From positions 3,310 to 67,309 of the forward strand of contig CAJTVU010000008.1 in NCBI GenBank assembly GCA_910580235.1: 64,000 bases of DNA, given 5' to 3'. The position numbers and the translations under genes are program-made. Under the pieces are notes generated by a model. The model was given only the letters and a program-made list of their open reading frames with translations. It was not told the origin of the DNA and did not search any database. The first letter of the stretch is position 1; every line of letters begins with the position of its first letter. This document shows positions 21,932 to 56,435 of this stretch, in pieces. This DNA is from an uncultured Dorea sp. (lineage in GTDB: Bacteria; Bacillota; Clostridia; Lachnospirales; Lachnospiraceae).

Positions 21932-23155
21932 TTAAATCATCCAAATCGGCACAATATAATTATCTCGATTAATTGCGCCAAGTTCTGGCTTCATGCAGAT
22001 AACAGCGCCTTTTGAACGAGGTGTTGATGATTTATCTAACAAGTCAAATATTTTTATTAGTTCTGTTCCGGGGTTGGAAGTCTTTTTAATCTCAATTGGG
22101 TTCAAAACTCCGTCATGTTCAAGTACGATGTCAATTTCCTTAGCATCCTTATTGCGATAATAGTATAAGTAAGGCTCTTTGCCAGAGTTCAAATAAGTCT
22201 TCATAATCTCAGCAACTACATAATTTTCTAAGATTGCCCCATTCATTGCGCCGCTTTCTAATGTTTCTGCATTGCTCCACTTTGTCAGATAACAAACTAA
22301 TCCTGTATCATAAAAATAAAGCTTAGGGGTTTTTACAAGGCGCTTCAACAAATTATTGGAATAAGGATGAAGGTAGAAAATGATTCCCAATGTCTCCAGG
22401 ATCCCTAACCAGTTCTTTGTCTGTGTCTGATTAATATCCGCATCCCTTGCGATATCCGCAACATTCAACATTTGACCGCACCTTGCCGCTACAGCAGTAA
22501 TAAATCTAAGAAATTTAAATGAATCAATGGCGTCTGACAGCTCTCTCACATCACGCTCAATATAGGTAGTCAGATAACTGCTATAGAAAATCTGGCTATT
22601 ACTGTTAGCTCCGCTTACAATTGCAGGCATGGATCCCCTATAGATCCGTTCAAAAATACCTCTTGCATCTGCCTGTTTCCTATTTGCCTTTCTGGCAGAT
22701 AATGCTTCTATGTCAAGTGTAAAAGGCTCCATCCCTCCGCCCGAAATTTCTGCCTGAGACAAAGAAGTAAGAGAAAGCGCGGCCACTCTTCCGGCTAAAG
22801 ATTCCCGTACGCCTTGCATCAGCTTAAACACTTGCGAACCTGTAAGCCAGAACGCCCCCGGCTCGTGATTTCTGTCTACATGAATCTTGATATAAGTAAA
22901 TAATTCCGGTGCATACTGAACCTCATCAATTAAGACAGGCGGCTTATGCAGCTGCAGAAATAGTTCAGGGTCTGTCTTTGCAATACTTCTTTCATTCAGG
23001 TCATCTAGAGTAACATACCCTCTATCCGTTCCTTCCATTAGCTTCTTAAGCATGGTAGTCTTACCCACCTGTCTTGGCCCAGTAACTAAGACTACAGGGT
23101 ATTCTTTTGTAACCTGGATTACTACACCCTCCAAATTTCTTATTATATAATTCAT
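21932..23155 (-). CDS. AAA-family ATPase with DUF4143-type C-terminal domain
   Basis: Walker A VTGPRQVGKTT, Walker B LIDEVQ, and the C-terminal region typical of AAA_14/DUF4143 proteins. Confidence 0.75.
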   Translation of the reverse strand: MNYIIRNLEGVVIQVTKEYPVVLVTGPRQVGKTTMLKKLMEGTDRGYVTLDDLNERSIAKTDPELFLQLHKPPVLIDEVQYAPELFTYIKIHVDRNHEPGAFWLTGSQVFKLMQGVRESLAGRVAALSLTSLSQAEISGGGMEPFTLDIEALSARKANRKQADARGIFERIYRGSMPAIVSGANSNSQIFYSSYLTTYIERDVRELSDAIDSFKFLRFITAVAARCGQMLNVADIARDADINQTQTKNWLGILETLGIIFYLHPYSNNLLKRLVKTPKLYFYDTGLVCYLTKWSNAETLESGAMNGAILENYVVAEIMKTYLNSGKEPYLYYYRNKDAKEIDIVLEHDGVLNPIEIKKTSNPGTELIKIFDLLDKSSTPRSKGAVICMKPELGAINRDNYIVPIWMI

Positions 23156-23328
23156 GTGCGCGTCCTTCTTTCGGCCAAATTATAATCTAATTATATTTTA
23201 GCCGAAACAAAGCAAGAAAACAAGCGCATTCCGGCTAATCTATATCTTATTTATATTTTAGCCGGAATGTGCTTGCTCTAGTCAATTTGAGATGGGGGAA
23301 AATCCACCGAAAGCGCACAAAGTGAATT

Positions 23329-23790
23329 TTACTCTATTCCAGATTGAAGGTGTTTGAGAAGAGCGTTGCAGCCCTCGACGACATCTTCATACGTCCGGTC
23401 GAAATTCCCGGTGTACCAGGGATCGGCGATCTCCCTCGGCTCTTCTGTGAAGTCCAGAAGGCTGTGGATCTTGCGATCCGGGTCTGCGCCCGCAATGCGG
23501 AGCATGTTGCGGATGTTCCACTGATCCATGCCGATGAGGTAATCATATTTTTGATAGTCTTTTTTCGTCATCTGTACGGCCCGGTGGGAGAGTACGGGGA
23601 CGCCTACCTCCTGCAGCTTGCGTATTGTGCCGTAATGGGGCGGATTTCCAATCTCTTCCCGGCTTGTGGCTGCAGAATCAATGTAGAAACGATCTGAAAG
23701 CCCCTTCTTATTAATCATGTCTTGAAAGACAAACTGTGCCATAGTCGAGCGGCAGATATTGCCGTGGCAGATGAATAGTATTTTAATCAT
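23329..23790 (-). CDS. Low-molecular-weight protein-tyrosine phosphatase
   Basis: P-loop CHGNICRS (CX5R-S) at the N-terminus and a DPWY general-acid loop. Confidence 0.9.
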   Translation of the reverse strand: MIKILFICHGNICRSTMAQFVFQDMINKKGLSDRFYIDSAATSREEIGNPPHYGTIRKLQEVGVPVLSHRAVQMTKKDYQKYDYLIGMDQWNIRNMLRIAGADPDRKIHSLLDFTEEPREIADPWYTGNFDRTYEDVVEGCNALLKHLQSGIE

Positions 23791-24064
23791 ATTGCCAGAA
23801 CCTTTGAAAATGCTGTATTTTCGGTGTTTCTACACATTTTCCTGTCCTTTCTGTTTCTTTATTTTCCTCATATCTTATCATAAATTATCATAATTTTGTG
23901 TGAATTTGAGGTAAAAAGTGAGGTAAATTCAAAATTTGTACCTCAAAGATAATTTTAATATGGTAAATTATACGCCTTTGTGATTTTTGCCTTTCCTGTT
24001 GGCTCTGGAGAGGATTTATGCTAAACCAACAACTAATATTGACAATATCATTTTGTCATGATGA

Positions 24065-25318
24065 TTACTTTATCACATACTTAGTACCCCTTCCTCTGCC
24101 TTCAATTTTCACAACACCTTTTTTACCCATCTCTTTCAGTAATTGTGTTGTCTTTGATTTACCAAACGGGGCGTAAGGGGCAATTTCGCTAATTGATTTC
24201 AGCATTGTCTTGCTTAAAATTTTATATATTTTTCTTTCGTCTTCCGTTAAATTCAGGTTTTTCTCAAAAACCGGAAGTACAATCTTAATTGTATTTTCCG
24301 ACACTTCAAAATCCGGCTGCTTCAATCCTTCTTCATAGAGCTGCTTTATCCGTGTAATTCCTGTACCGAATATTTCGACAAACCCCAGCCTGTAAAATAC
24401 ATTTGCAAGATTTCTATTTCTTAAGACTGAAAGTTTCCCCGATAAATACTCATCTTCCGTTATTCCAGAAGGCAGTCCTCCCGGAGAAATAATTTCTATT
24501 CTGTCGTCAAACATCGAAACTTTTATCTGTGATTCCACATCCCACACCCTATGAATCAGCGCGTTTGCGATTGCTTCTCTAAACGCGGCCTCCGGTATTT
24601 TTTCTACCTTTTTCCGCTCGGTGCCTTGTACTTCCTCGTATTGATAATAATCTTTAAATACTTCTGATACTTTTTCGTAGACTGTCAAAATGGATATATT
24701 ATCAAATGTTGCTCTCTTATGAATCACACTGATGCTCTCACCGAACCTCACCATATCAATTCCCGGAAAATGATTTTTATCCGCCAAAATGCCAGACGCA
24801 TTATTATATCCAGCGGTGCTGTTATATAAGTTCAGCGTTTTCAATGTGTCCTGATTAAAAGTTTCAATCTGAATACATTCTTTTAATTTTTGACATAGCG
24901 TATCAAATGTTAACTCTTGCTCTTCACACGGCAATTCTTCAAATTTGATATTTTTTCCTTCTAAAATCAATCTTGACAGCTCTAGTGTGTCAGCCTCTAT
25001 TGTTGCAGTATCATTTCGCTTGTATGCTTTCGATTTATATAAATATGGCTTTTGAAGCCCGCTTTTTACAGTCAGTTTTATCGTTCTGTCATTATTCTGC
25101 AATTCCAGTGTATAATCAGGCTGCGGAGTAATGCTGTCATTAATTTTATTTTCGATATCCAGACACGCTTGTTTTACATCCGACAGTCCTTTGATATTAC
25201 CATTGTCATCAATGCCAAAAAATATTTCTCCACCATCGTAATTCGAAAAGGCACTTACTGTTTTTAAAAATGTATTTGTAATCGTTTCTTTGAACTCTGT
25301 TGTTCTTGCTTCACGCAT
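24065..25318 (-). CDS. AlbA_2 (Schlafen-type) DNA-binding / HATPase_c_4-like / wHTH protein
   Basis: N-terminus TTEFKE..GGEIFFGIDDNG, central REAIANALIHRVW..ISPGGLP..RNRNLANVF, and a C-terminal wHTH. ATG 25318 was chosen over track start 25372. Confidence 0.7.
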   Translation of the reverse strand: MREARTTEFKETITNTFLKTVSAFSNYDGGEIFFGIDDNGNIKGLSDVKQACLDIENKINDSITPQPDYTLELQNNDRTIKLTVKSGLQKPYLYKSKAYKRNDTATIEADTLELSRLILEGKNIKFEELPCEEQELTFDTLCQKLKECIQIETFNQDTLKTLNLYNSTAGYNNASGILADKNHFPGIDMVRFGESISVIHKRATFDNISILTVYEKVSEVFKDYYQYEEVQGTERKKVEKIPEAAFREAIANALIHRVWDVESQIKVSMFDDRIEIISPGGLPSGITEDEYLSGKLSVLRNRNLANVFYRLGFVEIFGTGITRIKQLYEEGLKQPDFEVSENTIKIVLPVFEKNLNLTEDERKIYKILSKTMLKSISEIAPYAPFGKSKTTQLLKEMGKKGVVKIEGRGRGTKYVIK

Positions 25319-25375
25319 ACACTGCTCTCCCTTTCCAATTTTACTGTTTATATTATATGCAGAAATACGCAAAAA

Positions 25376-25412
25376 ATCAATCGTATTTTTTTGCGATCGA
25401 TTTTCTGAACGT
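25376..25412 (-). terminator. Intrinsic terminator of the 29634-25501 operon
   Basis: On the minus strand, hairpin AAATCGATCG..CGATTGATTT followed by TTTTTG. Confidence 0.55.
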
Positions 25413-25500
25413 TTTGGGTCATTAAGTTTTAAATTTCTGTCACATCAAGGCTCTTGCAGAAAATGGTGTAGTAGTGGTGTAGTAAATGTCTTTTCTCGCC

Positions 25501-26580
25501 TCAAAAGCTCTCTGGAACAAGCGCTAGTTTGTTAATCGACTCGTGAGCCCTGACAAGGGAGTCATAGACGGCCAGAACATCTTCGGAATCCCAGGTACGA
25601 AGGGACTTTTCATCAATAACGCCAGTGCTTTCACGTATGATCTTTGCGAGCTGTTCTTCGTCGGCGACAGCAACAACGGCCTGAACCGCAGCGTTGCTCT
25701 GTGCCTTTTTAAGGTTCAGGATAAGGCTATCTATAGAGCCCTTCGATTGTACCTCAAACACGTAGATCGCCTTACCCATATTACCGATCTTGGCTTCCCA
25801 AACGGCATCTACAACTGCGCCGGTGGTAATTTTAACTTCAGAACGACTGTTAAAGCCGAGAAGCTCGCCGATAGCAACCAATTTTTCCTTAATTTCATCG
25901 TGGAGGGATTTTGAATCATTTATGGTAACGGGGCTCTTAGATTCGGGAGCTGCAGGCGGTTCAGGCGATTTCTTTTCAGTGAGAGGTAAGATCTCGTCCC
26001 ACATAAAGTAATCTACTGCTAAAAGGTCATAATCTTCGGCACCGGCCTTTTTGAGCGCTGCGGCAATCTCTTTTGCAATTGTGCAAACCTCTGTATATTT
26101 CTTTCCTGTGTATTGGTAGTCATACTTTGGCATGCCGGGGATATCGAGATAACTGTAGCACAGGATCGTTGTCTTGTTAAAGATTACATACTCCTGTGGG
26201 TTGGCGTATGTAAGCAGCTCGCTCATTGTTGCAGGCCCCATACCTTTGATAGATTTCAAGAATACATCCCAACGCTTTTCAACAGGGCTTGTGCCGTAAA
26301 GCAATTCGGCCAATTGCTTTTTTAGTGCAGCAAAACCATTGTCGGCTATCAATTTATCGGCAACATACTTTTTATTGCCCCAAATAAGCATAGACCAAAG
26401 TTTGCTTATATACTCTAAGAATTCATCTTCGGTCATATCAATAAGCTTGTCCTTCGTAAATGACTGATAGTATTCCTTGCGCTCTTTGCGCTCAGCCCAA
26501 TTTTCTTCATAATAAGCGGCGTTTGTTTTTCTTTTCTTTGAAAATGCATTAATGGAATTCAATAATTTTGTATTGTTCAT
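25501..26580 (-). CDS. Hypothetical protein with HhH-like N-terminal half and PD-(D/E)XK-like C-terminal domain
   Basis: IKGMGPATMSELL is a helix-hairpin-helix-like GxG loop. The C-terminus VDAVW..VFEVQSKG fits D..E-x-K nuclease spacing. RBS AGGAGG is present, and the gene starts 30 nt after the upstream stop. Confidence 0.45.
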   Translation of the reverse strand: MNNTKLLNSINAFSKKRKTNAAYYEENWAERKERKEYYQSFTKDKLIDMTEDEFLEYISKLWSMLIWGNKKYVADKLIADNGFAALKKQLAELLYGTSPVEKRWDVFLKSIKGMGPATMSELLTYANPQEYVIFNKTTILCYSYLDIPGMPKYDYQYTGKKYTEVCTIAKEIAAALKKAGAEDYDLLAVDYFMWDEILPLTEKKSPEPPAAPESKSPVTINDSKSLHDEIKEKLVAIGELLGFNSRSEVKITTGAVVDAVWEAKIGNMGKAIYVFEVQSKGSIDSLILNLKKAQSNAAVQAVVAVADEEQLAKIIRESTGVIDEKSLRTWDSEDVLAVYDSLVRAHESINKLALVPESF

Positions 26581-26610
26581 GCAGAAACCTCCTGAAAAAA
26601 CTTTAATATT

Positions 26611-27573
26611 TTATCCTTTCCAATACCCAAGCTCTTCTAACAATCCCACGGCTTCCGGCTTATATTCTGCCCGGGCAGAGACATAGATCACTGTATCGGT
26701 GATACGGACTTTTGCCACATATAGCGTTTCGTTCTCTATGGAATACAATTCGTGAACCATTCCGCTGTATTCTTTAGTTTCTCCGTCCGATACAGGAAGA
26801 GTCATGCCGTTAAACAAGACACGGGCGCTGTCCGCTGTGTCCATAACAACAAAATCCATTCGGATATTGCCGTCATTAAATGAGACGGCTTCCTCAAGCA
26901 TTGAACCGACTTTCCAGTTCTGGCTCAATTCTTTCGTCGTATCGGAAGTTGTGTGCCCCGCATCCTCGACAACTTCTACAAAGTGATCTATTCCGATAGG
27001 GCGAATGCCTGGAAACAATTTCGTTGCTAAAGACATGCCGCCCAGGACAACCGAAACAGCTGCGATTCTAAAAACAATAGCTAATATAGGCTTCGGATTT
27101 GTCTTCTTCATTTCTTCAGGGCTCACATATTCTTCCGGTGGGAGGATCTCTTCCTCTTCCGGCTCCCCTCTTCTGCGTATCTTGTGGATCAAAGCCCAGG
27201 TTCCCGAAAGAAAGAATCCGATTGTGATAAATATTGCCCCAAAGCTAAGAAACACCATCAGATTATAAAGGCTGGGCGACAATATATCTGTGCAATTCTC
27301 TGGAGACTTTGGATCATACTTTATTTTGACCTGATCTCCAAGTCCCATTGGAGGGCTTCTGTTGTAAAGCTTGCCGGAATATTCATTTCCGTCTACTTCA
27401 TACTGATAGGTGATTTTATATCTGACGCTTCTATTGTGCCGGGAACGTGAGTATTCGCTGGATATATCAATACCCTCAGCGTACAAGGGGACATACGCCC
27501 TGAACCATGATATTTGAGCTGTTTCTATCTTTCTTTCGTGTCCTCGTTGTTTTCCAGTTCTTTGGCAATACAT
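26611..27573 (-). CDS. DUF3592-like membrane protein with extra C-terminal domain (start uncertain)
   Basis: Beta-rich block YKITYQYEVDGNEYSGKLY..GDQVKIKYDP followed by TM LMVFLSFGAIFITIGFFLSGTWALI. A second TM is ILAIVFRIAAVSVVLGGMSLA. No candidate start (27672, 27630, 27573, 27486) has an RBS, and the 5' end overlaps the upstream gene. Confidence 0.5.
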   Translation of the reverse strand: MYCQRTGKQRGHERKIETAQISWFRAYVPLYAEGIDISSEYSRSRHNRSVRYKITYQYEVDGNEYSGKLYNRSPPMGLGDQVKIKYDPKSPENCTDILSPSLYNLMVFLSFGAIFITIGFFLSGTWALIHKIRRRGEPEEEEILPPEEYVSPEEMKKTNPKPILAIVFRIAAVSVVLGGMSLATKLFPGIRPIGIDHFVEVVEDAGHTTSDTTKELSQNWKVGSMLEEAVSFNDGNIRMDFVVMDTADSARVLFNGMTLPVSDGETKEYSGMVHELYSIENETLYVAKVRITDTVIYVSARAEYKPEAVGLLEELGYWKG

Positions 27574-28247
27574 ATGCACAGGTTCGTATAACGCTCTATG
27601 GAATGCATTCCTTCTTCGATATGCTCCCATGATTTTTTGTAATCGCCGTTCACTGAAAAATCTGACTCGCACAGGAATTTGATAAACCCTTCCAGATTAT
27701 TTCTATACTTTCTGGCAAATGCATAAGAATTTTCCTCTTTGGCATCATCTGTGCTATTACGATTGTTATGTAGTACATGATCTAAGTTGCAGGACATGTA
27801 ATACACTCTATATGGTATGCTCCAAACTTGTCCATTGCTTTTCAGCCGATATAGGTTGTCCGTTTTTCGTTTGTTGCGCTCGATAATGCCTTGCGGATCG
27901 GACGTATGGATCCCATCAGATTCGTAAGAGATCCTGTCACATGTTAGATCATTGATAACATTTTCATCTGGAATGTATACACCGTCTGTATCGACAATGT
28001 GAATGATCTGCTTAAAATCTTTTGCTGTATAATGCTGTGATTTTGTAAATATACGCACTTCATTTCCAATCTTTGAAACGATATTTTGCGGGTTCACGCC
28101 ATTTCTGGCTGTAATATCGCCGTGCATAATATGGACATGCACCGAATCTTTATCATATATCTGATCCAACATGACGCCTAATGCCGTCTCATCGGAAGAC
28201 CCTTCTACAATGACAAGCACGATCTTCTTACGAGCCAAATGCCTCAC
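27525..28247 (-). CDS. TOPRIM-like protein (DUF4435/RloB/OLD-nuclease type)
   Basis: N-terminal KIVLVIVEGSSDE (conserved Glu strand) and IIHIVDTDG (DxD). The start overlaps the upstream ATPase by 20 nt. Confidence 0.6.
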   Translation of the reverse strand: MRHLARKKIVLVIVEGSSDETALGVMLDQIYDKDSVHVHIMHGDITARNGVNPQNIVSKIGNEVRIFTKSQHYTAKDFKQIIHIVDTDGVYIPDENVINDLTCDRISYESDGIHTSDPQGIIERNKRKTDNLYRLKSNGQVWSIPYRVYYMSCNLDHVLHNNRNSTDDAKEENSYAFARKYRNNLEGFIKFLCESDFSVNGDYKKSWEHIEEGMHSIERYTNLCICIAKELENNEDTKER

Positions 28248-29634
28248 CCGCCTCTCTGAACGCTAAAGCGATCTCAAAGTTATTCGTAGGATTATATACC
28301 TGTTCATTCTGCTCACCTAAAACAATATCGCGATAGTAGAAATCTCTTAAGTTATTATTCCCTTTTACATTCGTCAGCCGGATGTACCTGTTTGCCGGAT
28401 TCGTTGTTGTGAACGCAATGAATCCTTTGTCAATCGTTTCAAGTGGCCTAAGATTGTGTGATGTAAATATCAGTTGCCCTTTCCCTTTTTCGGAAATAAT
28501 ATTCAGGACTTCTCCAAGCAGATATTCAAAGATCCCCGAATCCAGCTCGTCAATTGCTACAGTGATAGATGGAGTGTTATATACTATAATGAGCAGCTGC
28601 AAGACAGATACGATTTTCTTGATACCTTCAGACTCATATCGAAACGGGATTGTTTTTCTGTTCTTTAGCGACACAAGCTGGATCGATCTTCCGGGATGCC
28701 CTTCTTTAGATACTACAGGCCCTAAATCTACAATACCGATTGTTAATCCAGGAACGAGCTGCTGCAGAACGATGTTCATGTTATTAATGATTTTTTCAAT
28801 AAGCGGCATAGCTTCTTCTGGGATTGGCGCGGGGATATTCAGCGGGAGCATTAGGTTTCCGACCGCTTCTTTATTGTTGTTTGTACATTTAAAGGATAAA
28901 GGCAATGCATTCATACTGATTAAGCCGGCATTTTCCGTATTAATAATAAAGAGCTCGCGATTACCGAATGCATATAATCCTTTTATGATATCCAGATATT
29001 TTCGGACCGTACAGTTTTCCTGGAAACGTTGGATCATTTCTCTGGAGAAAATAAAGGATCTTGATTGTTCCTGGGCCAGACGTTTTGTTACAAGTAATTC
29101 TGTAACATCATCTTTTGCTTTTCCCAGCAGTGCGTTATATTTTGACTTTGGGATAAATATGTCTGATGTCCTTGTATCTATAAGCGAGTTTTTCCGGATT
29201 TTTTCTTCTTTTGATGTATACCCAAAACTTAGCGCTTCATCAAAAATCTGCGCCTTGTACTTTAATTCAGAATCGGAAAGCCTATATTCATTGGAGTCTG
29301 GATCATCAATCACTTTCTTCAAAGAGAACTGGTACCAGATATCGTAGACAGCCTCATTTAATTGCATTTTGAACTGGAATTTAAGCAGGGAGCAGCTTTC
29401 TGCAATGCTAATATAGTCTGCATATTTTTCTGGAACAGCTTTGCCACATAAAACAAACTTGAGCAGTTGTAGCGCGTCGATTAGAGCAGTTTTCCCCGAG
29501 CCATTCTGCCCGTATAGGCCAACGATGCTTGCGCGATAATTCTTTCTTCGATTTTCAAGATCAAGCGTTCCCTTTTGCACATTTTTAAAATTCTCAATGG
29601 AAATGTTCTCTATCCTAATAAAACGCTTGCTCAT
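28228..29634 (-). CDS. ABC-type ATPase of the AAA_15/AAA_21 (OLD/AriA-like) class
   Basis: Walker A GQNGSGKTALIDAL, a long helical insertion, Walker B ITVAIDELDSGIFEYLL, and an H-loop LIFTSHN. ATG 29634 sits 5 nt after GGAGGT. Confidence 0.75.
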   Translation of the reverse strand: MSKRFIRIENISIENFKNVQKGTLDLENRRKNYRASIVGLYGQNGSGKTALIDALQLLKFVLCGKAVPEKYADYISIAESCSLLKFQFKMQLNEAVYDIWYQFSLKKVIDDPDSNEYRLSDSELKYKAQIFDEALSFGYTSKEEKIRKNSLIDTRTSDIFIPKSKYNALLGKAKDDVTELLVTKRLAQEQSRSFIFSREMIQRFQENCTVRKYLDIIKGLYAFGNRELFIINTENAGLISMNALPLSFKCTNNNKEAVGNLMLPLNIPAPIPEEAMPLIEKIINNMNIVLQQLVPGLTIGIVDLGPVVSKEGHPGRSIQLVSLKNRKTIPFRYESEGIKKIVSVLQLLIIVYNTPSITVAIDELDSGIFEYLLGEVLNIISEKGKGQLIFTSHNLRPLETIDKGFIAFTTTNPANRYIRLTNVKGNNNLRDFYYRDIVLGEQNEQVYNPTNNFEIALAFREAGEAFGS

Positions 29635-29943
29635 AATAACCTCCATAATTTCAATAAATAATCCAATATGTATGTTCTTGTTAATATTATACCATTATAT
29701 TGCTTAATATTTCAATATAAAAATATGATTTTGGAACTTTTTGTTCCGATTAACTGATTTGGTATAAATTATTTGTAATAGTTTGTATTTTGCTCATTTT
29801 TTCAAAAAGTATACCTACCCTCAGTGTACAAGGGGTCCCTCATTTTCTGAAAGGTTAATAAGTTAACAGGAGAATTGCTTGTTTTTCGTGGCAATATCTG
29901 ATATTATGTTCTCAGATTACTTTACGGAAAGGAAGTGCTTAAC

Positions 29944-33667: not shown

Positions 33668-33681
33668 TGCGGAGATATTCT

Positions 33682-33722
33682 GGCAGTCTTTTAGCCGTCG
33701 TAATCTCTAGCAAAAGACTGCG
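33682..33722 (+). terminator. Hairpin after the antiporter gene
   Basis: GCAGTCTTTT..AAAAGACTGC, a 10-bp stem with a weak U-tract. Confidence 0.45.
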
Positions 33723-33967
33723 GATAAACTGAGCAGTATTTATAGCCCCACCTTTTTAATTTTAGCATATTTTCAAATGCTATTTATATCATAAAGCGTA
33801 TCATGGTTCTGGATGGGAAGACGACATGAAAAAAATAATGGAAAAGAGGAGGATTGTATGATAATATGATAATATATAGAAACAGAGGCGACACACAGCT
33901 TGGACGTTCATTCTTCATTCATCATCAGTACATTTGTTTCTATCATTCATGAAGGAGAAGGAACTGT

Positions 33968-34453
33968 ATGGGCAGCAGGTTTACAGAAGGGTTTAAGGAA
34001 GAGAGTTGGTATAAGGAATTGTGTGAAGAGGGTCAGTATATCTGTGACCTTATCCATAAATATCATAAATATTTTAGTAGACAAGATAAGAAATACCGTC
34101 ATATTGTCAGGGTGTTTCATATACTTGTCTTATTATTTTCCATGATAAATACAATCGTGTTGGGAATGAAGACGATTATATCAGCGGATATCCAGATTGT
34201 GGCAGGGCTTATCTTGAGCGCGCTGGTAACGTTTGTTTCAGCTATCATGTCATATTTTAATTTTGAAGAATACTGGATGCGAAATATTACGACGCATATT
34301 GATCTCAATATTCTCAGAGACCGGTTCATTTTTGATGCAAAGTCTGGGAGATTTGACGATAGAAAGAAAATTCAGCAATATAAAGATGCCTTGGAAGAAT
34401 TGCAGAAGAAAAATATAAAGTATTGGAAAAAATCGCTGAAGAAAATCGGATAA
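33968..34453 (+). CDS. SLATT/DUF4231-like two-TM protein
   Basis: 161 aa. Cytosolic head, TM1 VRVFHILVLLFSMINTIVLGM, TM2 IVAGLILSALVTFVSAIMSYF, then a helical tail NFEEYWMRNITTHIDLNILRDRF. RBS GAAGGAGAAGGA precedes the start. Confidence 0.55.
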   Translation: MGSRFTEGFKEESWYKELCEEGQYICDLIHKYHKYFSRQDKKYRHIVRVFHILVLLFSMINTIVLGMKTIISADIQIVAGLILSALVTFVSAIMSYFNFEEYWMRNITTHIDLNILRDRFIFDAKSGRFDDRKKIQQYKDALEELQKKNIKYWKKSLKKIG

Positions 34454-34465
34454 AGGAGTATAGTC

Positions 34466-35431
34466 ATGGAAAAGGGAATTATTGAAAGTACAAGGGAGAA
34501 TTCTCAGAACATACTGAGCAAGATACGAGAACAATTAAGAGAAAGGTTTCCTTTAGAAAATGAGAAGTATAAGAATATTTGTGTTTATGCCTGCGGCTCT
34601 CTGGGAAGATTAGAAATGTCAGAGAATTCAGATTTAGATTTGTTTTTTGTCTCTTTGCATAATTGTGGAGAGGATCCTATGTGCCAGAACCTGAATAAAT
34701 ACAAGTTTTTTTCAAAACTATATGATATAAATTGTGCGATGGAATTTCCTGAACCCAGTAAATGTGGAGAGTACTGGGAATTCATTAATAAAGACGATTT
34801 TCTTGACATAGGAAGCAGGAAGGAAGACTTTAATAATAGTTTTACGGCTCGGCTTCTGTTCCTTTTGGAAAGTAAGCCAATTTATAATGAAGAAGCATTC
34901 GATTGGCTTTTGAAGGAGACGGTCTCAAAATATTTTACCGACTATGCAGACCACCGGGATGAATTTTACCCGTTATTTTTGATAAATGACATTCTGCGCT
35001 ATTGGTATACATTGACATTGAATTATGAATATAGAAGAGATGATGCGGATGATGTCCACAAGAAGAACTGGAAACGCCTGAAACTGAAATACGCCCGGTT
35101 ACTTACATGTTTTTCTATGATTGCATGTCTGTATCGTAGGAATATTACGAGCGAGTACGTGGTGGAATGCATAAAAATGACGCCTCTTGAACGTTTGGAT
35201 AAAGTGGCCTCGAAAAATACTGAGCTTAGAGGTATTGTGGAGAGCATTAAGAAAGAATATGAGTGGTTTCTTAATTTAAGGCAGACCAGAGACAATGGAT
35301 TTGATGAGAAGGAGAAGCGGGAAGAGGCCTTCCGGCATGCGGATAAATTTCATGAGCTTGTCTTGCATCAGTTGCTCAATCAAGTGTCGCAGGCAAATCC
35401 GCAGTTAAGGAAGAGGATGGATTTATTCTAA
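34466..35431 (+). CDS. Pol-beta superfamily nucleotidyltransferase with helical C-terminal domain
   Basis: CGSLGRLEMSENSDLDLFFV is a G-S..D-x-D catalytic signature (nt 34595..34639). The subfamily is unresolved: SMODS/CD-NTase-like versus GlnD/DUF294-like. Confidence 0.7.
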   Translation: MEKGIIESTRENSQNILSKIREQLRERFPLENEKYKNICVYACGSLGRLEMSENSDLDLFFVSLHNCGEDPMCQNLNKYKFFSKLYDINCAMEFPEPSKCGEYWEFINKDDFLDIGSRKEDFNNSFTARLLFLLESKPIYNEEAFDWLLKETVSKYFTDYADHRDEFYPLFLINDILRYWYTLTLNYEYRRDDADDVHKKNWKRLKLKYARLLTCFSMIACLYRRNITSEYVVECIKMTPLERLDKVASKNTELRGIVESIKKEYEWFLNLRQTRDNGFDEKEKREEAFRHADKFHELVLHQLLNQVSQANPQLRKRMDLF

Positions 35432-35450
35432 TCTGAAATGGGGACTGACT

Positions 35451-37694
35451 ATGAAGTATTTTGCGCTATTTTTAAATGAAAATAGTTTTATTGAAAAATG
35501 TATCTCGCTGATGAGGTTTATAAGCAATCCGTCTACAAAATCCAGGCCGCATATTACAGTGCGCCTTTTTAAGGAGTCAGATCCTAGAATGGAAGAATCT
35601 AGGAAGATGGAGGAATCCAGAAGGAGAGAGTTTACGTATCTTAATATTGTCTGTCCGGGAACTTTTAACTTTGAGAAAAAAAAACCGCCTTATGTAGTCT
35701 TTCTGCAGTGTGAGTCGGAAGAACTTGAAGATATAGAATATAAGCCTGATTTTCCTTATAGCAGACTTCATATTACGATTTACGAGGGGGACGATTACTC
35801 ATATGCAGAAAAGTTGTATCAGTTGCTATGCTCTTTTTCATGGCATTTCAAACTGCTTTTTGAAAGCCCGAGAAAACTGTTGGAGCAAAAGGTAGGGAGT
35901 AAAAGTTATGAGAGGCCGGATTTTCAGGCTATATTTGAGGAGATCATAGGAGAAGGCTATCAGGAATTCTTAAAGGATTATGACAAAGATATAGAAGTTC
36001 GGCTTAAGTTGATGAGAAGGCTGCTTCAAGAACTTAAGATTCATCTGGAAGAGGTTAAACCAGAAAAGATTCAGTCGGTTTATGAGAGTAGTTCCAGACT
36101 AAAAAGCGGTGGTCAAAAAAAAACTTATAGACAGATGAAAGATGGAGTCACCTTGCCCTTTTTGGATGAAGAACCTGTTACATTTCATAAACCTGTAACA
36201 GATGCCATTTATATTACACCTCCGGAATATGCAAGAGACATGGTGAAATGTGGTCTGGAGGCCATGGAAGAGAACCACGGGGAAATTGATTTCGGTGATT
36301 CTGCTATAGGGACAGGAACTCTATTTCTGGCACTTCGGCTTTGGATTGATGAAATAAACAGAACACATGGGAGTGGACATAACTATAGAATACGCTCTGC
36401 TATAGGAATTGATATTGACAGACAAATGGCGGATGAAGCTTCTATCCGTTGCCACAAAAGGGGCTTGAAAGTGATTTACGGTGATGCTCTTCTGCCTCAT
36501 ATGGATTTGGGGGAAAAACGCAATTTTATGGTAGTGAACCCACCGTTTAACCGTCATGGAGATATACCAAAAGAATATAGGGAGCTCTTGCATGACAGTG
36601 CAAAAGAGCAGACTGGAATAAGTATTGCAGGAAATGCAGGGCTATATGTGTACCATCTATTGATTATGGATAAATGGTTATGCGACGGTGGAGTGGCGGT
36701 ATGGCTTCTCCCAGCTGTCTTCATGCAGGTAAGGTATGGGGAGGCGGTCAGGCGTTATCTGCTGGATTGTGTGCAACTGATAAAAATCCATATTTACAAC
36801 GAAGAGGTAGAGCAGTTTGACAGTACAAATGTATCTACTGCTATCGTGGTTTTCAGGAAGGGAAAGACTGAGAGGGAAGACAAAGTGCAGGTTTCTTACG
36901 GGGCTTCTGTGGAACATCCGATAGATAGTAAGCGCATACTAAGAGAAGAACTTGTAAAAAACATGGACAACTGGAGAGTAGTATTAAAAGAAGAGGCGTC
37001 TTTTGGAGAGCATGGCAGTAAGATTACATTCGATGACTTGTTCGAAATAAAACGTGGCGTGGCTACAGGTGCGAATGATTTCTTTGTCATGACAAGAGAA
37101 AAAGCCAGAGAGTTCCATATTCCTGATATTGCTTTAAAGCCGCTGATCCCCAAGGCACGTTATTTGAAGTCTCTAGTGATAGAAGAAAGAGAAGATGGTT
37201 ATCCCGATGTAGAACCACAGTTGGTAATGATTGACTGTGCTTTAGACGAAGAGCGTATTCAAGAGATGTATCCGGGTTTCCATCGTTATCTGCAGTTGGC
37301 AAAAGTAAAAGAAGAGAATGGCGTCGCCGTTGTCGACAGATTTCTGGTGAGAAATAGGCATCCTTGGTACAGGCAGGAAAGAAGGGAACCGCCAGTTTTT
37401 CTTCTGACTTATATGGGTAGGAATAAGAAGAATCTGCCTCCTCTCTATTTTATATGGAACAAATCCCAGGCGGTTGCGTTGAACACGTATTTACTGCTAT
37501 ATCCCAGAAAAGGGCTGAAAGCTAGGCTGCGTGAGAATCCGGCTCTGCACGAGATAATATTGGATGCGCTCAATAAGTCTGCACAGGAAATGATGTCTTT
37601 CCGGGCAAGAGTCTATTCGGGCGGACTTAAGAAAGTTGAGCCAAATGAACTGCGTAGAATGCCGATTATAGGGCTAAATGAATTTTTGCAGTAA
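35451..37694 (+). CDS. Fusion protein: N-terminal 2H phosphoesterase-like domain plus gamma-class N6-adenine methyltransferase (Eco57I/TaqI-like)
   Basis: Two HxTx motifs with the expected context: RPHITV at aa 33-37 and RLHITI at aa 105-110, after an N-terminal YFALFL strand. SAM motif FGDSAIGTGTLF (nt about 36291..36329). Catalytic NPPF at nt 36537..36548. C-terminal FEIKRGVATGANDFF target-recognition-type block. Confidence 0.7.
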   Translation: MKYFALFLNENSFIEKCISLMRFISNPSTKSRPHITVRLFKESDPRMEESRKMEESRRREFTYLNIVCPGTFNFEKKKPPYVVFLQCESEELEDIEYKPDFPYSRLHITIYEGDDYSYAEKLYQLLCSFSWHFKLLFESPRKLLEQKVGSKSYERPDFQAIFEEIIGEGYQEFLKDYDKDIEVRLKLMRRLLQELKIHLEEVKPEKIQSVYESSSRLKSGGQKKTYRQMKDGVTLPFLDEEPVTFHKPVTDAIYITPPEYARDMVKCGLEAMEENHGEIDFGDSAIGTGTLFLALRLWIDEINRTHGSGHNYRIRSAIGIDIDRQMADEASIRCHKRGLKVIYGDALLPHMDLGEKRNFMVVNPPFNRHGDIPKEYRELLHDSAKEQTGISIAGNAGLYVYHLLIMDKWLCDGGVAVWLLPAVFMQVRYGEAVRRYLLDCVQLIKIHIYNEEVEQFDSTNVSTAIVVFRKGKTEREDKVQVSYGASVEHPIDSKRILREELVKNMDNWRVVLKEEASFGEHGSKITFDDLFEIKRGVATGANDFFVMTREKAREFHIPDIALKPLIPKARYLKSLVIEEREDGYPDVEPQLVMIDCALDEERIQEMYPGFHRYLQLAKVKEENGVAVVDRFLVRNRHPWYRQERREPPVFLLTYMGRNKKNLPPLYFIWNKSQAVALNTYLLLYPRKGLKARLRENPALHEIILDALNKSAQEMMSFRARVYSGGLKKVEPNELRRMPIIGLNEFLQ

Positions 37695-37781
37695 AGATAT
37701 GGAGATTTTCTAACATTAATTTTCTCTTTGGCATGACTGTATAAATCATTTGAGCCGTCAAAAAGTGAATAGACTGAGAAA

Positions 37782-37827
37782 CGAGAGTATTGCAAAATTA
37801 GTCAGAGGAGACTGAGCGATACTCTCG
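37782..37827. terminator. Hairpin between convergent genes
   Basis: CGAGAGTAT..ATACTCTCG, a 9-bp stem with a large loop. Confidence 0.4.
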
Positions 37828-37834
37828 CCTTATG

Positions 37835-38539
37835 TTAGATACAGTAGAAACCCCGGCAACAGAGGTTGCAAATAAGATTTGCAAGGCACAGGTTTGTGCA
37901 GAGGCTGCCTCCGCCGGTGAAGGTGGTCTCATAAGGGCGCTGTTGCTGCTGATACCATGTCCCGCCGTTTTGAAGGCGGCTTACAAGTATTTGGTATTGC
38001 AGGTTGCCAGGGTCGAGGCGCAGCGCTTCTCGGGCGTGCTGGAGCGCGAGGACATTGCTCCCAATGCCGGAACAGGCAAGCGCGCTGTAATAATACCACT
38101 GTGCGTTCCGATTCTGAATGCCGTTTAAGAGGTTCAATGCTTCCTGATAATGCCTGCTTTGTATGAAATTAGCGGCCGCCCTCATATGTAAGTCTTCCTC
38201 ATTGTCAGTTGCGCCCGTATTTGTCTGTTGGCGGTACTCTGCGCCGAATCCCCGGAACGGGCCTCCAAATCCGCCGAAATCCCTAAAATCTCCGAAGCTT
38301 CCAAAACCTCCAGAACCTTCCTGGGAAGAGCCTGCGCCAGAAGGGCCATATTCTTTCTCGTGCATAATCTGGCCGTATGCCTGCTGCACTTCTTTGAATT
38401 TTGCCTCGGCCTGCGCTTTGTCTGGATTATTAATATTGGCGTCAGGGTGGTATTTCCGGCTTAAGTTTCGATATGCCTTTTTAATGTCGTCGTCTGAGGC
38501 AGTTCTTGGGATGCCTAAGACACTGTAAGGGTCTGTCAT
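37835..38539 (-). CDS. J-domain protein with TPR-like region and Cys-rich C-terminal tail
   Basis: [31 protein letters not shown] (J domain with HPD), a G/F-rich linker, and the tail [21 protein letters not shown]. The ATG overlaps the upstream stop (ATGA). Confidence 0.8.
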
Positions 38540-39405
38540 AACATATGTTCTCCTGTTTGTGCGGGATGCGTGTTCTCGGGATGAAGCCTTCTCTGCGTGA
38601 CAGCCGTATAGCGGCGCCATACGCCTGAATATAAAATGTTTCGCAGAATATCTGCGTGGAGCAGGATCGGAAGCTTCTCGAATTCTCTGGAACACTCGGA
38701 CATCATAAGGGTCAGGATAGCACGGAAATCTTCAGCGAACTTTTCGTCTGCCCGGAATGTTTCTTTGAGGGGGTTATAGCTTCCGTTCTTTTTGTCTTTC
38801 TCGATATCCTCATAGGCGTCCATAAGATAAATGAATTTTCCGAGAAAGAATCCAATCTTCCGCAAGGAGGATTCCCATTCATCCTCGCGGAATACAAATA
38901 TCTCTGCCATAATATTCCCAAAAAGACCGGCCATCCTGTCCAGATCTGTCTCCTGTAGTCTCTCATAATAAGAGAGTTTTTGCAAGTCCGAAGAAATCCT
39001 CGCCGCTTTTTTAGGATACCGGGCTACTGCGGCATTTACTTTGGGGCGCAGGGATCGGAAAGCAAGAAGGCCTTTTTTGCTGCGCTCGTCTTTCCAGTCG
39101 TCTTTACATTTATAGTAAGAAAGAATCAGATTCATAGAGGCCGCATAGTCTGTATAGTCGTTTGTCCGCGCAGTGTGCTTCGCAAAAGGATGTGCGGCAC
39201 AGTTTAATACGGACGTATTATCTTCGGGCTCATACAGCCCGGTTAGCAGGACTATAAGAAATGTCATATCATAAGACAGGGTCATTTGTCCGCGTCTGCC
39301 ATAAATTTCTTTCAGGCGTCTGCAAAGCCCGCAGTAATAGGAATGATATAGATCGTAATCTTTAAATTTCATTTCAGCCTTGTTGATTGCAATGTAGCCG
39401 AACAT
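38536..39405 (-). CDS. DUF5685-family protein
   Basis: [32 protein letters not shown]-terminus, which I recognise from DUF5685. Confidence 0.6.
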
Positions 39406-39416
39406 GCGCTTCCTCC

Positions 39417-39812
39417 TTAGCTGTTTTTAATAAATGTAGCGCCGCATTTTGGACAGCGGATCTCAATGCGCCCCTTGCCGCGGGGGATGCGGATCTTCTG
39501 GCTACAGGACGGGCACTTGTAGATATGATGCGTCCTGCGCTGGGACAGCATGTTTTTCTGACGTGTGAAGAAACAGCGCAGCTTGTAAGTCTTTTCCTGA
39601 TATATGCGGTTTTCTGCGGCACGTTTATATATATTTTTAGAAAACATGCGAAAATAAGTATAAATAATACAGGCCCATGACAGAATCGGGAATATAGAAG
39701 AGTCTGTGAACCATGTGATTACGGCAAAGGCGAGGCCGATGCCCAGGGTGGCTTTGCCCATGGAGTCTACGCCATACCTTCCGTACATGAGGCGCATAAT
39801 TTTTTCCTTCAT
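39417..39812 (-). CDS. Membrane protein with C-terminal zinc-ribbon
   Basis: A TM segment and CPSC..CPKC. RBS GGAAGGTG precedes ATG 39812. Confidence 0.6.
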   Translation of the reverse strand: MKEKIMRLMYGRYGVDSMGKATLGIGLAFAVITWFTDSSIFPILSWACIIYTYFRMFSKNIYKRAAENRIYQEKTYKLRCFFTRQKNMLSQRRTHHIYKCPSCSQKIRIPRGKGRIEIRCPKCGATFIKNS

Positions 39813-39958
39813 AATAATCACCTTCCTAATATTTACCATCATACGCTGTCAGGAGATAAAGTCAATAAACGGATAATTAAAAAAGTATAAAATAATTGAG
39901 TAAGAGGGGAGTGAATGCTATAATGAGTGACAAGAGTAAGAAAAGAAGGTTGGATAGC

Positions 39959-54802: not shown

Positions 54803-55009
54803 ATTGCCTCTGCGGGCATTTAGAGAATGCCCGTGACCGAGGAAATGTGAAACATTTTCGAGGTGCGCTTGGTGGTAATATGGGGCTTTCTTAAAGATGA
54901 GGAAGCCCTTTCTTAAATTTTGCAACAGTGAAAAAGTGGAAAGCGGTGCCAAAACGGTGCCATAAAGTAGAAATTTTATGAAGTTTGATTATGTATCAGA
55001 GAAAATACT

Positions 55010-55038
55010 TTGACATATTCATAGTATAGTGTTAATAT
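55010..55038 (+). promoter_or_regulatory. Near-consensus orphan promoter driving a short antisense RNA
   Basis: TTGACA, 17 nt, TAATAT. No ORF follows. Confidence 0.55.
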
Positions 55039-55044
55039 GATTAT

Positions 55045-55133
55045 AGAAAGGGCGCTACCGATAGACGGTTAGCCCGGTATATAAGTGAAACAAAAATTGC
55101 CGCTTAGTTTACCAGACAGGGCGGCTATTTTTG
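55045..55133 (+). ncRNA. Candidate antitoxin sRNA (type I TA), convergent with the small toxin ORF
   Basis: It runs from the predicted TSS to the hairpin GCCGC..GCGGC plus TATTTTTG (55099..55133). Its 3' end overlaps the toxin stop codon and 3' UTR on the opposite strand. Confidence 0.45.
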
Positions 55134-55226
55134 TGATTTATTGCTTCCGATGGTATATCCAAGTCCGAAAGAGGTCAAGCATAAGCTGATTACTGCAATC
55201 AGACTTTCAATAGTCAACATTGGCAT
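55125..55226 (-). CDS. Small hydrophobic peptide, holin-like / type I toxin candidate (33 aa, absent from the ORF track)
   Basis: MPMLTIESLIAVISLCLTSFGLGYTIGSNKSQK. RBS AAAGGAGGGG precedes the ATG. A terminator hairpin and U-tract directly follow the stop. Confidence 0.55.
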   Translation of the reverse strand: MPMLTIESLIAVISLCLTSFGLGYTIGSNKSQK

Positions 55227-55411
55227 CCCCTCCTTTAGCAAGATTTCCGACAGATAAACTGTGGATTTCTATGTAAACAGAGGGGCACAGTCCCTCTGCT
55301 GAAGGACTAACCGCCTACCGTTTTTTGGTAGCACCCATGAAAAGATTATAACAATTTAAGGTTATATAATTAATCCCTAAATCTTATTATTAAAATACCA
55401 GTGAAACTTTA

Positions 55412-56435
55412 TTGTTCACTGACATTTTTTTGCAAACCTTGAGTTGGAAGATAGCAGAACTTTTTGAGGAATTTGTTACCATACTATTTGTTGACTGTAT
55501 TAATAATTATGCATCTATGGAGTATATACGTAGGGGATATCTTGAGGATTTCATTAGGGAGAGCAACAGTTCATTGATAGAAGAACTTAATGTACGCTCT
55601 TTGGAGGATTTATTGGTATCCGAGGAAGTGGCGGAGGAAAAGGATGACGGAATAGCAATCAAAAATATTGGACTGCTTATGTTTGGAGAAAGACTAGACA
55701 AATTGATTGCAGGAAGCAAGATTGAGTTGGTGCGTTTTCATGATATGGAAGCGGAGGCGTCTGATTTTACAGAGAAGACATTTTACGGTCCGATATGGAA
55801 GCAGGTAAGAGACGCGCCAGACCACATTAAGACAACTGTGGTTGAGGAAAAGGTGGTAAAGGTTGATGGAAGGGCAGAAGCAGACCGTTTTTTCAACTAT
55901 CCGTATAATGCGCTGGAGGAAGCGCTTGTAAATGCGGTTTTGCACAAGAATTATAAAGAGGATGTGCCGGTAGAGATTCGGATTTATTTGGATCAGATTC
56001 AGATTATCAATTTTCTGGAATTTTTCAAGGAAATTGATTTGTCTGAGAAGAAATCGACGGGCATATCGAAAATTTTGCGCGAACTAAAAAGAAATGGTTC
56101 GCCCATGCCAGAGTTTGAAACGGATGTGGACAGAACTTATACGATTGCTACAATAAGGATTCACGGAAGGTTTGAAACTGAGAGTACAAACTTCGCTCAA
56201 AAAGATGAGCGAAGTTTTGGCGCAAAAAGATTATAATAAAGTAAGTATAATTGTTAGTTTTATGGAAGAACATGGAGAAATCACTCCTAGAGAAGCCGAA
56301 GCGGTTACGGGAAAGTCTGCTGCGACAGTTCGGAGATATTTTAAAATGCTTACAGGTACAGGATATATAGTGGCAGAGGGGAGTACTAACAATATAGTTT
56401 ATCGTATTACTATTAATTTGTCAGAAGATGATTAA
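55412..56435 (+). pseudogene. Decayed AlbA_2/HATPase_c_4/wHTH gene, paralog of 24065..25318
   Basis: It lacks the AlbA_2 N-terminus and retains EEALVNAVLHKNY. There is an internal loss where the PGG..RN..GSGI blocks should be. A frameshift joins ORF 55412..56236 to 56172..56435, which carries the wHTH. Confidence 0.6.

Follow-up and report, generated by a model that had tools for sequence, protein, structure and literature searches.

The question raised by this stretch of DNA, a window of 64,000 nt on contig CAJTVU010000008.1 of an uncultured Dorea sp., is whether three tightly packed genes near its center, coding for a small membrane protein, a nucleotidyltransferase (NTase) and a 2H phosphoesterase joined to a DNA methyltransferase, belong together, and what such a set of proteins may do. 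Comparison with related loci indicates that the three open reading frames (ORFs) are one mobile operon of a conserved conflict system, and abortive infection directed against phages is the likeliest role of that system. The cassette spans 33968-37694 on the plus strand (coordinates are positions within the window, except where another locus is named), and is composed as follows:

33968..34453, plus strand: ORF1, a SLATT-family protein of 161 aa with two transmembrane helices and a helical cytoplasmic tail
34466..35431, plus strand: ORF2, a GlnE/DrrA-like NTase of 321 aa with the Pol-beta fold, related to PDC-M70A and ending in a helical domain
35451..37694, plus strand: ORF3, 747 aa, in three parts
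35451..35900, plus strand: ORF3 residues 1-150, the 2H phosphoesterase domain, with H34xT36xR38 and H107xT109
35901..36200, plus strand: ORF3 residues 151-250, a conserved helix (181-202) and then a low-confidence disordered linker
36201..37694, plus strand: ORF3 residues 251-747, the N6-adenine DNA methyltransferase (gamma class) and its M_Eco57I_C/TaqI_C-like target-recognition domain

The ORF list of the window places 12 nt between ORF1 and ORF2 and 19 nt between ORF2 and ORF3, and all three genes are preceded by recognizable ribosome-binding sites, of the GGAG/AGGAG type for ORF1 and ORF2 and a weaker GGGGA for ORF3. The GC content of the cassette is 0.397 (ORF1 0.352, ORF2 0.379, ORF3 0.414) compared with 0.499 in the 3.7 kb to its left and 0.490 in the 5.4 kb to its right, and the cassette forms a single GC trough. 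A preliminary description of this DNA, made from its letters alone, had listed three same-strand ORFs with these spacings in a stretch that is AT-rich by eye; the coordinates and gaps are reproduced here and the GC values agree.

ORF1 is a SLATT two-transmembrane membrane protein. It scores 64.8 bits against the NCBIfam model SLATT_1 (NF033634, cut-off 41) and 28.1 against Pfam DUF4231 (cut-off 24.7), with the Pfam SLATT_1 and SLATT_4 models below cut-off, and its PADLOC match is to the RTasSLATT/2TM effector. Hydropathy places the hydrophobic segments at approximately residues 45-65 and 69-95, a layout kept in 20 aligned homologs, and the protein is predicted to be a membrane effector. Sequence and profile searches of solved structures with ORF1 and a 20-sequence profile gave one chance-level match only, and HalA, the channel of the Hailong system, was not matched.

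An intact Pol-beta NTase, ORF2 falls in a GlnE/DrrA-like clade to which the PADLOC candidate PDC-M70A is related. The catalytic motif reads G44-S45 ... D56-L-D58, and G44, S45, D56, D58 and D114 are invariant in 22 homologs. In Pfam there are only sub-threshold matches, to GlnE, NTP_transf_2 and DUF294, and the sole strong library match is to PDC-M70A (8.6e-25). The AlphaFold model (predicted local distance difference test score, pLDDT, 90.9) is closest in fold to the AMPylation domain of Legionella DrrA (6yx5_B, E 1.8e-4) and to both halves of GlnE (1v4a/3k7d), and has only the minimal NTase core in common with MntA, the aminoglycoside NTases (ANT) and HalB, the NTase of Hailong. The HalB chains 9dbj and 9dbh align with E-values of 0.06-0.26 (TMq 0.20-0.28, TMt 0.27-0.35), and HalB is not returned by sequence and profile searches of the PDB with ORF2; weak DrrA matches are the only useful result from such searches of solved structures with all three proteins. 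ORF2 has no SMODS or CD-NTase match in Pfam or PADLOC, cGAS, DncV and CdnE are absent from its best fold matches, and its closest folds are DrrA and GlnE; it is therefore not a CD-NTase. A housekeeping identity as GlnE or GlnD is ruled out by scores of 14-15 bits against the NCBIfam GlnD/GlnE equivalog models, whose cut-offs are 487-959, and by the presence of a single NTase domain in a 321-aa protein. No ORF2 homologs are present among 50,697 phage records, and plasmids contain distant ones only.

ORF3 begins with an intact 2H phosphoesterase, which is joined by a helix to a complete Eco57I-type methyltransferase. The 2H motifs are H34-I-T-V and H107-I-T-I, and both HxT triplets as well as R38 are invariant across 24-34 aligned homologs. 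The model of residues 1-250 (pLDDT 82.7) has a compact alpha/beta domain (1-150), a long helix and a linker, and helix 181-202 is shared with stand-alone 2H proteins and with the type IIG fusions described below. The best-ranked PDB folds of the N-terminus are all 2H proteins (YjcG, the Arabidopsis Appr>p cyclic phosphodiesterase, Thermus LigT, ASCC1, a phage phosphodiesterase, Usb1 and LigT), and the viral-library folds are 2'-5' RNA ligase proteins and the anti-CBASS protein Acb1. The stand-alone 2H homologs pass the Pfam 2_5_RNA_ligase2 gathering score (29.7 and 28.4 against 27), and the assignment follows from these scores together with the invariance of the motifs and the consistent identity of the top matches. 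A word-indexed search with residues 1-250 gave two fragments, and was replaced by full-length and exhaustive profile searches.

The methylase part has motif I as GDSAIGTG and motif IV as NPPF at residue 363. Its matches to N6_Mtase (3.6e-9), Eco57I (1.4e-6) and M_Eco57I_C together span residues 251-742, and ORF3 matches the PADLOC model MTase_II (PDLC03328) at 8.5e-82. The nearest methylases lacking a 2H domain are in contexts resembling restriction-modification (R-M) loci. There is no nuclease domain in ORF3 and no endonuclease gene in the cassette or its relatives, which agrees with the statement in the preliminary description that this is not classical R-M. The domain assignments in that description also stand: the SLATT/DUF4231 layout of ORF1 is borne out by two family models, the G-S..D-x-D signature of a Pol-beta NTase in ORF2 by hidden Markov models, alignment and the structure model, the reading of the two HxTx motifs as a 2H domain by invariant motifs, folds and homologs, and the NPPF-type adenine methyltransferase by its family matches. 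It had further named grouping of the NTase with GlnD as an outcome that would speak against its proposal; the nearest relatives are of the GlnE/GlnD/DrrA type, but ORF2 is not an orthologue of these enzymes and falls within the PDC-M70A family.

Relatives of the NTase were gathered as 7 loci of species-representative genomes, 44 of metagenomes and 1 of viral contigs, together with those of an encoding-contig index. Synteny was counted in 32 loci in which the NTase is at least 45% identical to ORF2, with identical copies excluded. A SLATT homolog lies directly upstream of the NTase in 29 of the 30 loci with sequence available, and a 2H domain directly downstream in 30 of 31, the sole exception being a truncated remnant; the recurrence of the trio in the same order across genomes had been proposed as a check, and is what is found. 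Identities to the window proteins are 46-69% for the NTase in the 32 loci (34% in one further locus), 43-76% for ORF1 and 37-71% for the methylase region of ORF3. With the methylase as starting point of the search, SLATT and NTase genes are again found upstream in loci whose ORF3 identity is 44% and 36%, and the SLATT protein of the latter belongs to the SLATT_4 family. The neighbors vary in every genome, with housekeeping genes mixed with integrases, transposases and other conflict genes, and there is no recurrent fourth gene, the commonest family being present in 2 of 59 flank proteins. The short gaps, the single GC trough, the synteny and the lack of a fourth gene argue that the three genes are one unit.

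The family is large. At 90% clustering there are 1,388 NTase relatives, and the exhaustive profile search gives 514 clusters at 50% identity for the 2H-plus-helix family. Among the best 150 of the 514 cluster representatives, 62 have the length of a methylase fusion, 64 are free-standing and one has type IIG length; the two HxT/S motifs are kept in 148 of these 150 and NPP[FYW] in 57 of the 62 fusions. Conservation of these motifs and of the NTase GS/DxD residues argues for catalytic competence of the enzymes. The close relatives are mostly from Firmicutes of human, animal and termite guts.

Several loci depart from the common form. In one (L012) the 2H and methylase parts are separate ORFs, in another (L025) a truncated NTase has no partners, and in three (L023, L027 and L043) the genes are fragmented; these split or decayed copies are signs of turnover or assembly errors. 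An apparent triple fusion of NTase, 2H and methylase in a 1,057-aa protein (P0232, L062 6001-9174) was rejected as evidence of fusion because its junction is Arg/Pro-rich and frame-shift-like, the long-read contig has 1.07x coverage, and other genes on it are split; this is probably two genes, in a high-GC organism with no SLATT gene upstream. We note that one copy of the trio (L054 5446-9225, on a 31 kb contig of an IMG/VR uncultivated virus genome, UViG) is inside a predicted prophage. It is flanked on one side by genes for a BglII endonuclease and for two methylases, MT-A70 and D12, and on the other by a CI-type repressor (Peptidase_S24 and HTH), followed by SSB and further phage-type genes.

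More distant relatives reveal which parts are constant and which are exchanged. In approximately 12 loci with NTases 35-40% identical to ORF2, the gene after the NTase codes for a free 2H protein of 200-230 aa, with a 4-nt overlap between its start and the NTase stop, and most of these loci lack SLATT, although a few have other small membrane proteins. The constant core is the NTase-2H pair, and not the SLATT-NTase module on which the preliminary description had centered.

The 2H domain itself appears in three settings: free, fused to an Eco57I-type methylase as in the window, or fused to an MmeI-like type IIG enzyme. In six loci, mostly from termite-gut and related metagenomes, the downstream gene codes for a protein of 1,220-1,280 aa in which the 2H domain and helix are followed by a whole MmeI-like type IIG R-M enzyme:

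L015 3797-7465: type IIG-fusion locus
L017 3396-7112: type IIG-fusion locus
L024 4045-7893: type IIG-fusion locus
L016, L019 and L022: further type IIG-fusion loci

The NTase and SLATT proteins of these six are as close to those of the window as in other methylase-type loci. The fusion matches PADLOC REase_MTase_IIG end to end at 1.9e-125, and Pfam MmeI_Mtase, and its alignment to ORF3 is limited to the 2H part (28% identity over 137 aa, E 2e-10). A quick neighbor-joining tree of the NTases places the type IIG-fusion loci on a branch beside the methylase-fusion loci, with the free-2H type as a separate clade. Because the 2H domain is independently fused to two unrelated R-M-type enzymes, coupling to R-M is central to the system, and the methylation component is more than an accessory.

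The effector slot is also interchangeable, being occupied by a SLATT_1-like protein, by SLATT_4, or by a TIR domain fused to the NTase. The TIR variant (L068 879-4548 and L069 184-3853) has no SLATT gene and consists of a 511-aa TIR::NTase protein, a gap of 1 nt, and a 710-aa 2H-methylase 34% identical to ORF3. The TIR domain matches TIR_2 at 2e-20, and the NTase part matches the ORF2 profile with an hhalign probability of 100% (E 1.4e-42). In the window the predicted effector is the SLATT protein described earlier, but in a related locus TIR takes its place; a swap of a membrane effector for TIR is a pattern typical of abortive-infection systems such as the anti-phage signaling systems based on cyclic oligonucleotides (CBASS), Thoeris and prokaryotic Argonautes (pAgo). 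A separate N6_N4 DNA methylase is encoded just upstream.

NTase relatives at a greater distance than these in every case give a better match to PDC-M70A than ORF2, and have other phosphoesterases as partners. Six loci with PDC-M70A-positive NTases 26-32% identical to ORF2 (L047, L049, L050, L051, L053 and L066) have varied partners. The partners of such distant NTases include an HIT protein, an HD dGTPase-like protein with a histidine phosphatase in a Clover-like arrangement, the AP_endonuc_2 TIM barrel of the true PDC-M70 and an HMGL-like protein, and on a Mycobacterium plasmid a distant NTase-HIT pair adjoins hsdR. A further distant homolog (27% identity, 98% coverage) is on the E. coli plasmid pISHS7_5 (L065, NZ_CP092257.1, 711-1706), a 4.5-kb ColE1-type plasmid on which the NTase is the only annotated cargo, with an unannotated 157-aa ORF of no family match just upstream.

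Judged by its genes, the cassette resembles the nucleotide-signal abortive-infection systems, yet belongs to none of those testable here. With type I CBASS that use a SLATT effector it shares a two-transmembrane SLATT protein encoded beside a Pol-beta NTase, and membrane-mediated abortive infection would be expected of both; it differs in having an NTase that falls outside the CD-NTases, an obligatory 2H-methylase gene and no Cap proteins, so that the view that this is not canonical CBASS is upheld. ORF3 residues 251-747 are a complete methylase with a target-recognition domain, as in type IIG/IIL R-M enzymes (Eco57I, MmeI) and orphan Eco57I-type methylases, and the sister variant carries a whole MmeI-like enzyme, but ORF3 has no nuclease domain and the cassette no restriction gene; to our knowledge the R-M enzymes described so far do not carry a 2H domain at the N-terminus. 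In PrrC-EcoprrI an anticodon nuclease guards a type I R-M system, and the likeness is one of logic only, an abortive-infection effector being coupled to an R-M enzyme and firing on its perturbation; the proteins are entirely different, and PrrC couples by protein-protein association whereas the cassette would do so through its fused 2H domain acting on an NTase product.

PDC-M70 is an untested candidate, chosen for being embedded in BREX, DISARM or type I R-M loci (Payne et al., bioRxiv 10.1101/2024.01.29.577857). Like the cassette, it pairs an NTase with a phosphoesterase-type partner, and ORF2 matches its A component as given above; however, a true PDC-M70 locus scores 6e-132 for A and 4e-97 for B, no cassette gene matches B, and PDC-M70 has neither SLATT nor a methylase fusion, its B component being an AP_endonuc_2/TIM barrel. 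That PDC-M70B might be a divergent 2H protein was considered and rejected (hhalign probability 0.06%, Pfam AP_endonuc_2).

In Hailong, as reviews describe it, the HalB NTase makes poly-dA that keeps the HalA channel closed (Tan et al. 2025; reviews PMC13434031, PMC13276650). As proposed for the cassette, a partner NTase controls the membrane effector through its product, and product degradation is the switch, but HalB shares only the minimal NTase core with ORF2, ORF1 matches no solved structure by sequence, and Hailong has two genes whereas the cassette encodes its own putative degrading enzyme, fused to a methylase. DRT10 is composed of a UG17 reverse transcriptase, a noncoding RNA and SLATT, with a product proposed to activate SLATT and SbcB suppressing toxicity (bioRxiv 10.64898/2026.04.29.721553). 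It is similar in coupling a SLATT effector to a nucleic-acid-synthesizing enzyme, with toxicity suppressed by a host nuclease that degrades the product, a part that 2H would play in the cassette, and dissimilar in using an RNA-templated reverse transcriptase and SLATT family 5, whereas the putative degrading enzyme of the cassette is part of the system; the window list has no reverse transcriptase ORF, and neither an Rfam match nor a conserved upstream element was found. Clover pairs the dGTPase CloA with the NTase CloB, which makes the inhibitory p3diT (bioRxiv 10.1101/2025.07.09.663793). It resembles the cassette in pairing an NTase with a hydrolase, its regulator is a linear dinucleotide made by the NTase, and distant ORF2 relatives lie beside an HD protein; however, the Clover hydrolase is the effector, and there is no membrane protein or methylase.

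These features suggest how the parts may be wired. The effector would be under the control of a ribonucleotide-containing product of the NTase, which may be an oligonucleotide or a chain primed on a protein; ribose is expected in the product because 2H enzymes require 2'-OH chemistry. The 2H domain would hydrolyze this product, and the product level would gate the effector in a writer/eraser circuit. A role for 2H as the signal-clearing enzyme is plausible, and Acb1 is a 2H enzyme that degrades immune nucleotide signals. Because the putative eraser has twice been fused independently to DNA-recognizing enzymes of the R-M type, the state of the DNA enzyme may be the input to the circuit: with 2H tethered to it, the balance of synthesis and hydrolysis would report whether that enzyme is busy on unmethylated foreign DNA or is blocked by phage anti-restriction proteins. 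In the wiring that we prefer the product activates SLATT and 2H is a safety catch; infection would lower 2H activity, the product would accumulate, and SLATT would permeabilize or depolarize the membrane and so abort the infection, with the methylase marking host DNA such that self DNA does not engage the sensor.

A defense role is argued for by the swap of SLATT and TIR, by the prophage copy beside a CI repressor and a BglII R-M system, and by the defense-type genes 4-12 kb upstream of the cassette, and coupling to R-M by the two fusion lineages, the embedding of PDC-M70 in R-M loci and the NTase-HIT pair beside hsdR. The preferred direction of control draws on the described SLATT systems that we found (type I CBASS, and DRT10 according to its authors), which read as product-activated; on the analogy to DRT10, where product accumulates, SbcB suppresses toxicity and SLATT executes; and on the PrrC-EcoprrI guard paradigm, which fits an inhibitor tethered to an R-M enzyme. 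Taken whole, as an abortive-infection module with SLATT switched on by the product and 2H as its safety catch, this statement is tentative, and we give it somewhat less than an even chance. Doubtful, at a lower grade than this, is the broader proposal of a new R-M-coupled abortive infection, in which the tethered 2H eraser would convert the state of DNA-modification immunity into an NTase-product level that gates a SLATT pore or TIR NADase; the content of that proposal is a self-guarding R-M system with built-in writer/eraser signaling, which we hold to be doubtful to the same degree.

Several observations weigh against the product-activated wiring or the assignments and mobility on which it draws. 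The fold E-values of the ORF3 2H domain are modest (0.004-0.5 in the PDB and viral searches), and its own Pfam 2H match is weak (2H-SAK, E 0.11). The NTase resembles GlnE and DrrA, which AMPylate proteins, and a Tyr-AMP product would be an atypical 2H substrate. Every contig with an identical antiporter upstream also carries the cassette, so that the empty-site comparison gave no insertion-site evidence. Loci with an NTase and a free 2H protein usually have no recognizable effector, and there a toxin/antidote arrangement or a hydrolase acting as effector fits at least as well; because such loci are poorly explained by either direction of wiring, both of these readings stay alive. Lastly, the recent NTase systems Hailong and Clover use inhibitory products (PMC13434031, PMC13276650, bioRxiv 10.1101/2025.07.09.663793).

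The last of these points leads to the main alternative, an inverted arrangement similar to Hailong and Clover, in which the NTase product constitutively inhibits SLATT or TIR, and 2H, triggered by the DNA enzyme on unmethylated foreign DNA, destroys the inhibitor and the effector fires. Hailong and Clover are experimentally shown precedents, HalB is among the weaker fold matches of ORF2, distant ORF2 relatives are in Clover-like operons with an HD protein beside the NTase, and the 2H domain of ORF3 is at the N-terminus, where type IIG enzymes have a nuclease that acts on unmodified sites. We nonetheless regard this arrangement as unlikely, as the likeness to HalB is confined to the minimal NTase core (TM 0.22-0.35), ORF1 has no sequence similarity to any solved structure, HalA included, the likeness to Clover is one of operon layout, the type IIG fusions carry the nuclease as well as 2H, and both described SLATT systems that we found (type I CBASS, and DRT10 as its authors propose) read as product-activated. 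In a CBASS-like scheme, along the lines of the preliminary description, the NTase itself would sense infection and make a SLATT-activating messenger, with 2H only clearing the background and the methylase as accessory or passenger. SLATT beside an NTase is an established type I CBASS layout, and 2H enzymes such as Acb1, one of the fold matches, hydrolyze cyclic oligonucleotide signals, but ORF2 is not a CD-NTase (its best structural matches being DrrA and GlnE), there is no sensor domain, and the scheme leaves unexplained the two 2H-R-M fusions and the methylase motifs kept in 57 of 62 fusions; we consider it quite improbable.

Slightly less credit still is due to the hydrolase as effector, a scheme in which an NTase-made inhibitor restrains a toxic 2H RNA or nucleotide phosphoesterase that the fused DNA enzyme targets, with SLATT or TIR as a second effector. 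It accounts for the absence of another effector from most NTase plus free-2H loci and for the pairing of NTase relatives with HD dGTPase-like, His_Phos_1, HIT and AP_endonuc_2 TIM-barrel proteins. SLATT and TIR, however, are classic effectors that would suffice alone, the methylase-only fusion has no evident role in the scheme, and we know of no defense system with a 2H domain as toxic effector. Less probable again is an addiction module in which the NTase together with SLATT acts as toxin, 2H is the antidote, and the whole stabilizes a mobile element or the methylase with no antiviral role. The overlap of NTase and 2H genes in the two-gene form would suit such a module, as would the mobility of the cassette, with integrases or transposases nearby in some loci, and NTase toxins exist (MenT and AbiEii are examples); the SLATT/TIR swap and the complete R-M fusions, though, are typical of defense systems, one copy is in a prophage immunity region, and toxin-antidote and abortive-infection roles are not mutually exclusive. 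At the far end, and disfavored as very improbable, is an orphan DNA methylase beside unrelated genes, or a housekeeping RNA 3'-end repair pair of 2H cyclic phosphodiesterase and NTase. Each domain singly has housekeeping relatives (LigT, the CCA-adding enzyme, GlnE) and the nearest free relatives of the methylase part are in R-M-like contexts, but synteny in more than 30 loci, low GC, patchy distribution and variable genomic context argue otherwise, and SLATT and TIR have no place in a repair pathway.

Full-text literature searches (for the trio, PDC-M70, SLATT and DUF4231) returned no description of a system combining SLATT/DUF4231, an NTase and a 2H-methylase, in line with the earlier impression that this trio had not been described, and the source databases give the three proteins no names. 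The system is conserved and widespread, and to all appearance undescribed; what is new is that NTase and 2H form its core, that 2H has twice been fused independently to R-M enzymes, that the effector swaps between SLATT and TIR, and that there is a link to PDC-M70. If this is a defense system, then nucleotide-signal immunity (here an NTase with a SLATT or TIR effector, following the logic of CBASS, Hailong, Clover and DRT10) and R-M would be joined in a single operon, and in part in a single polypeptide, and we know of no earlier case of such wiring. The gut Firmicutes that carry the close relatives are a group in which few defense systems have been studied, and, if true, the reading would provide a testable function for a GlnE/DrrA-like NTase clade, for the PADLOC candidate PDC-M70 and for a bacterial 2H family.

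The cassette is delimited in the window by the following features, the two hairpins corresponding to those previously noted on its two sides and both having folding energies (minimum free energy, MFE) below expectation by z-score:

33675..33730, plus strand: left hairpin (MFE -15.5 kcal/mol, z -2.9), just 3' of the stop of the Na/Ca-exchanger gene
33731..33967, plus strand: upstream intergenic region, AT-rich
37775..37835, plus strand: right hairpin (-25.3 kcal/mol, z -6.3), flanked by the stops of ORF3 and of the convergent dnaJ-like gene

The low-GC insert is bounded on its left by the first hairpin, which probably serves the upstream Na/Ca-exchanger gene as terminator; the right hairpin is probably a bidirectional terminator and the right boundary. 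The entire intergenic stretch at 33668-33967 has a GC content of 0.36, and its part beyond the hairpin presumably holds the operon promoter and leader. A promoter scan upstream of the cassette gave no more sites than in shuffled sequence, Rfam gives no credible match, and the upstream DNA has no conserved element among the relatives. No flanking direct or inverted repeats were found that would mark a transposon or integration site.

To the right, the dnaJ-like cluster (37835-39842, minus strand) adjoins the cassette only within the same species. It codes for a DnaJ-domain protein (Gly/Phe-rich region, Cys-rich C-terminus), a 141-aa protein in which a CxxC...CxxC motif is accompanied by a hydrophobic segment, and a DUF5685 protein. 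The ORF listed for the last overlaps the DnaJ-domain gene; between the called genes this overlap shrinks to 4 nt. To the left, 4-12 kb upstream of the cassette, there is a separate low-GC island (21932-29646, minus strand, GC 0.36-0.42) of defense-type genes, including those coding for PDC-S01 (AAA_14 and DUF4143, 1e-110), a Schlafen AlbA_2/HATPase_c_4/TrmB protein, a DUF3592 protein, a low-molecular-weight phosphotyrosine phosphatase, and an AAA_15/21/23 ATPase that matches AbiLi (4e-29) and PARIS AriA and has a small 240-aa partner. A second low-GC stretch (0.36-0.42) at 55000-60000 contains several ORFs of no family match, a HATPase_c_4 fragment-like ORF (55412-56236) and a gene coding for an SPFH/Band7 and SHOCT protein (57304-58332).

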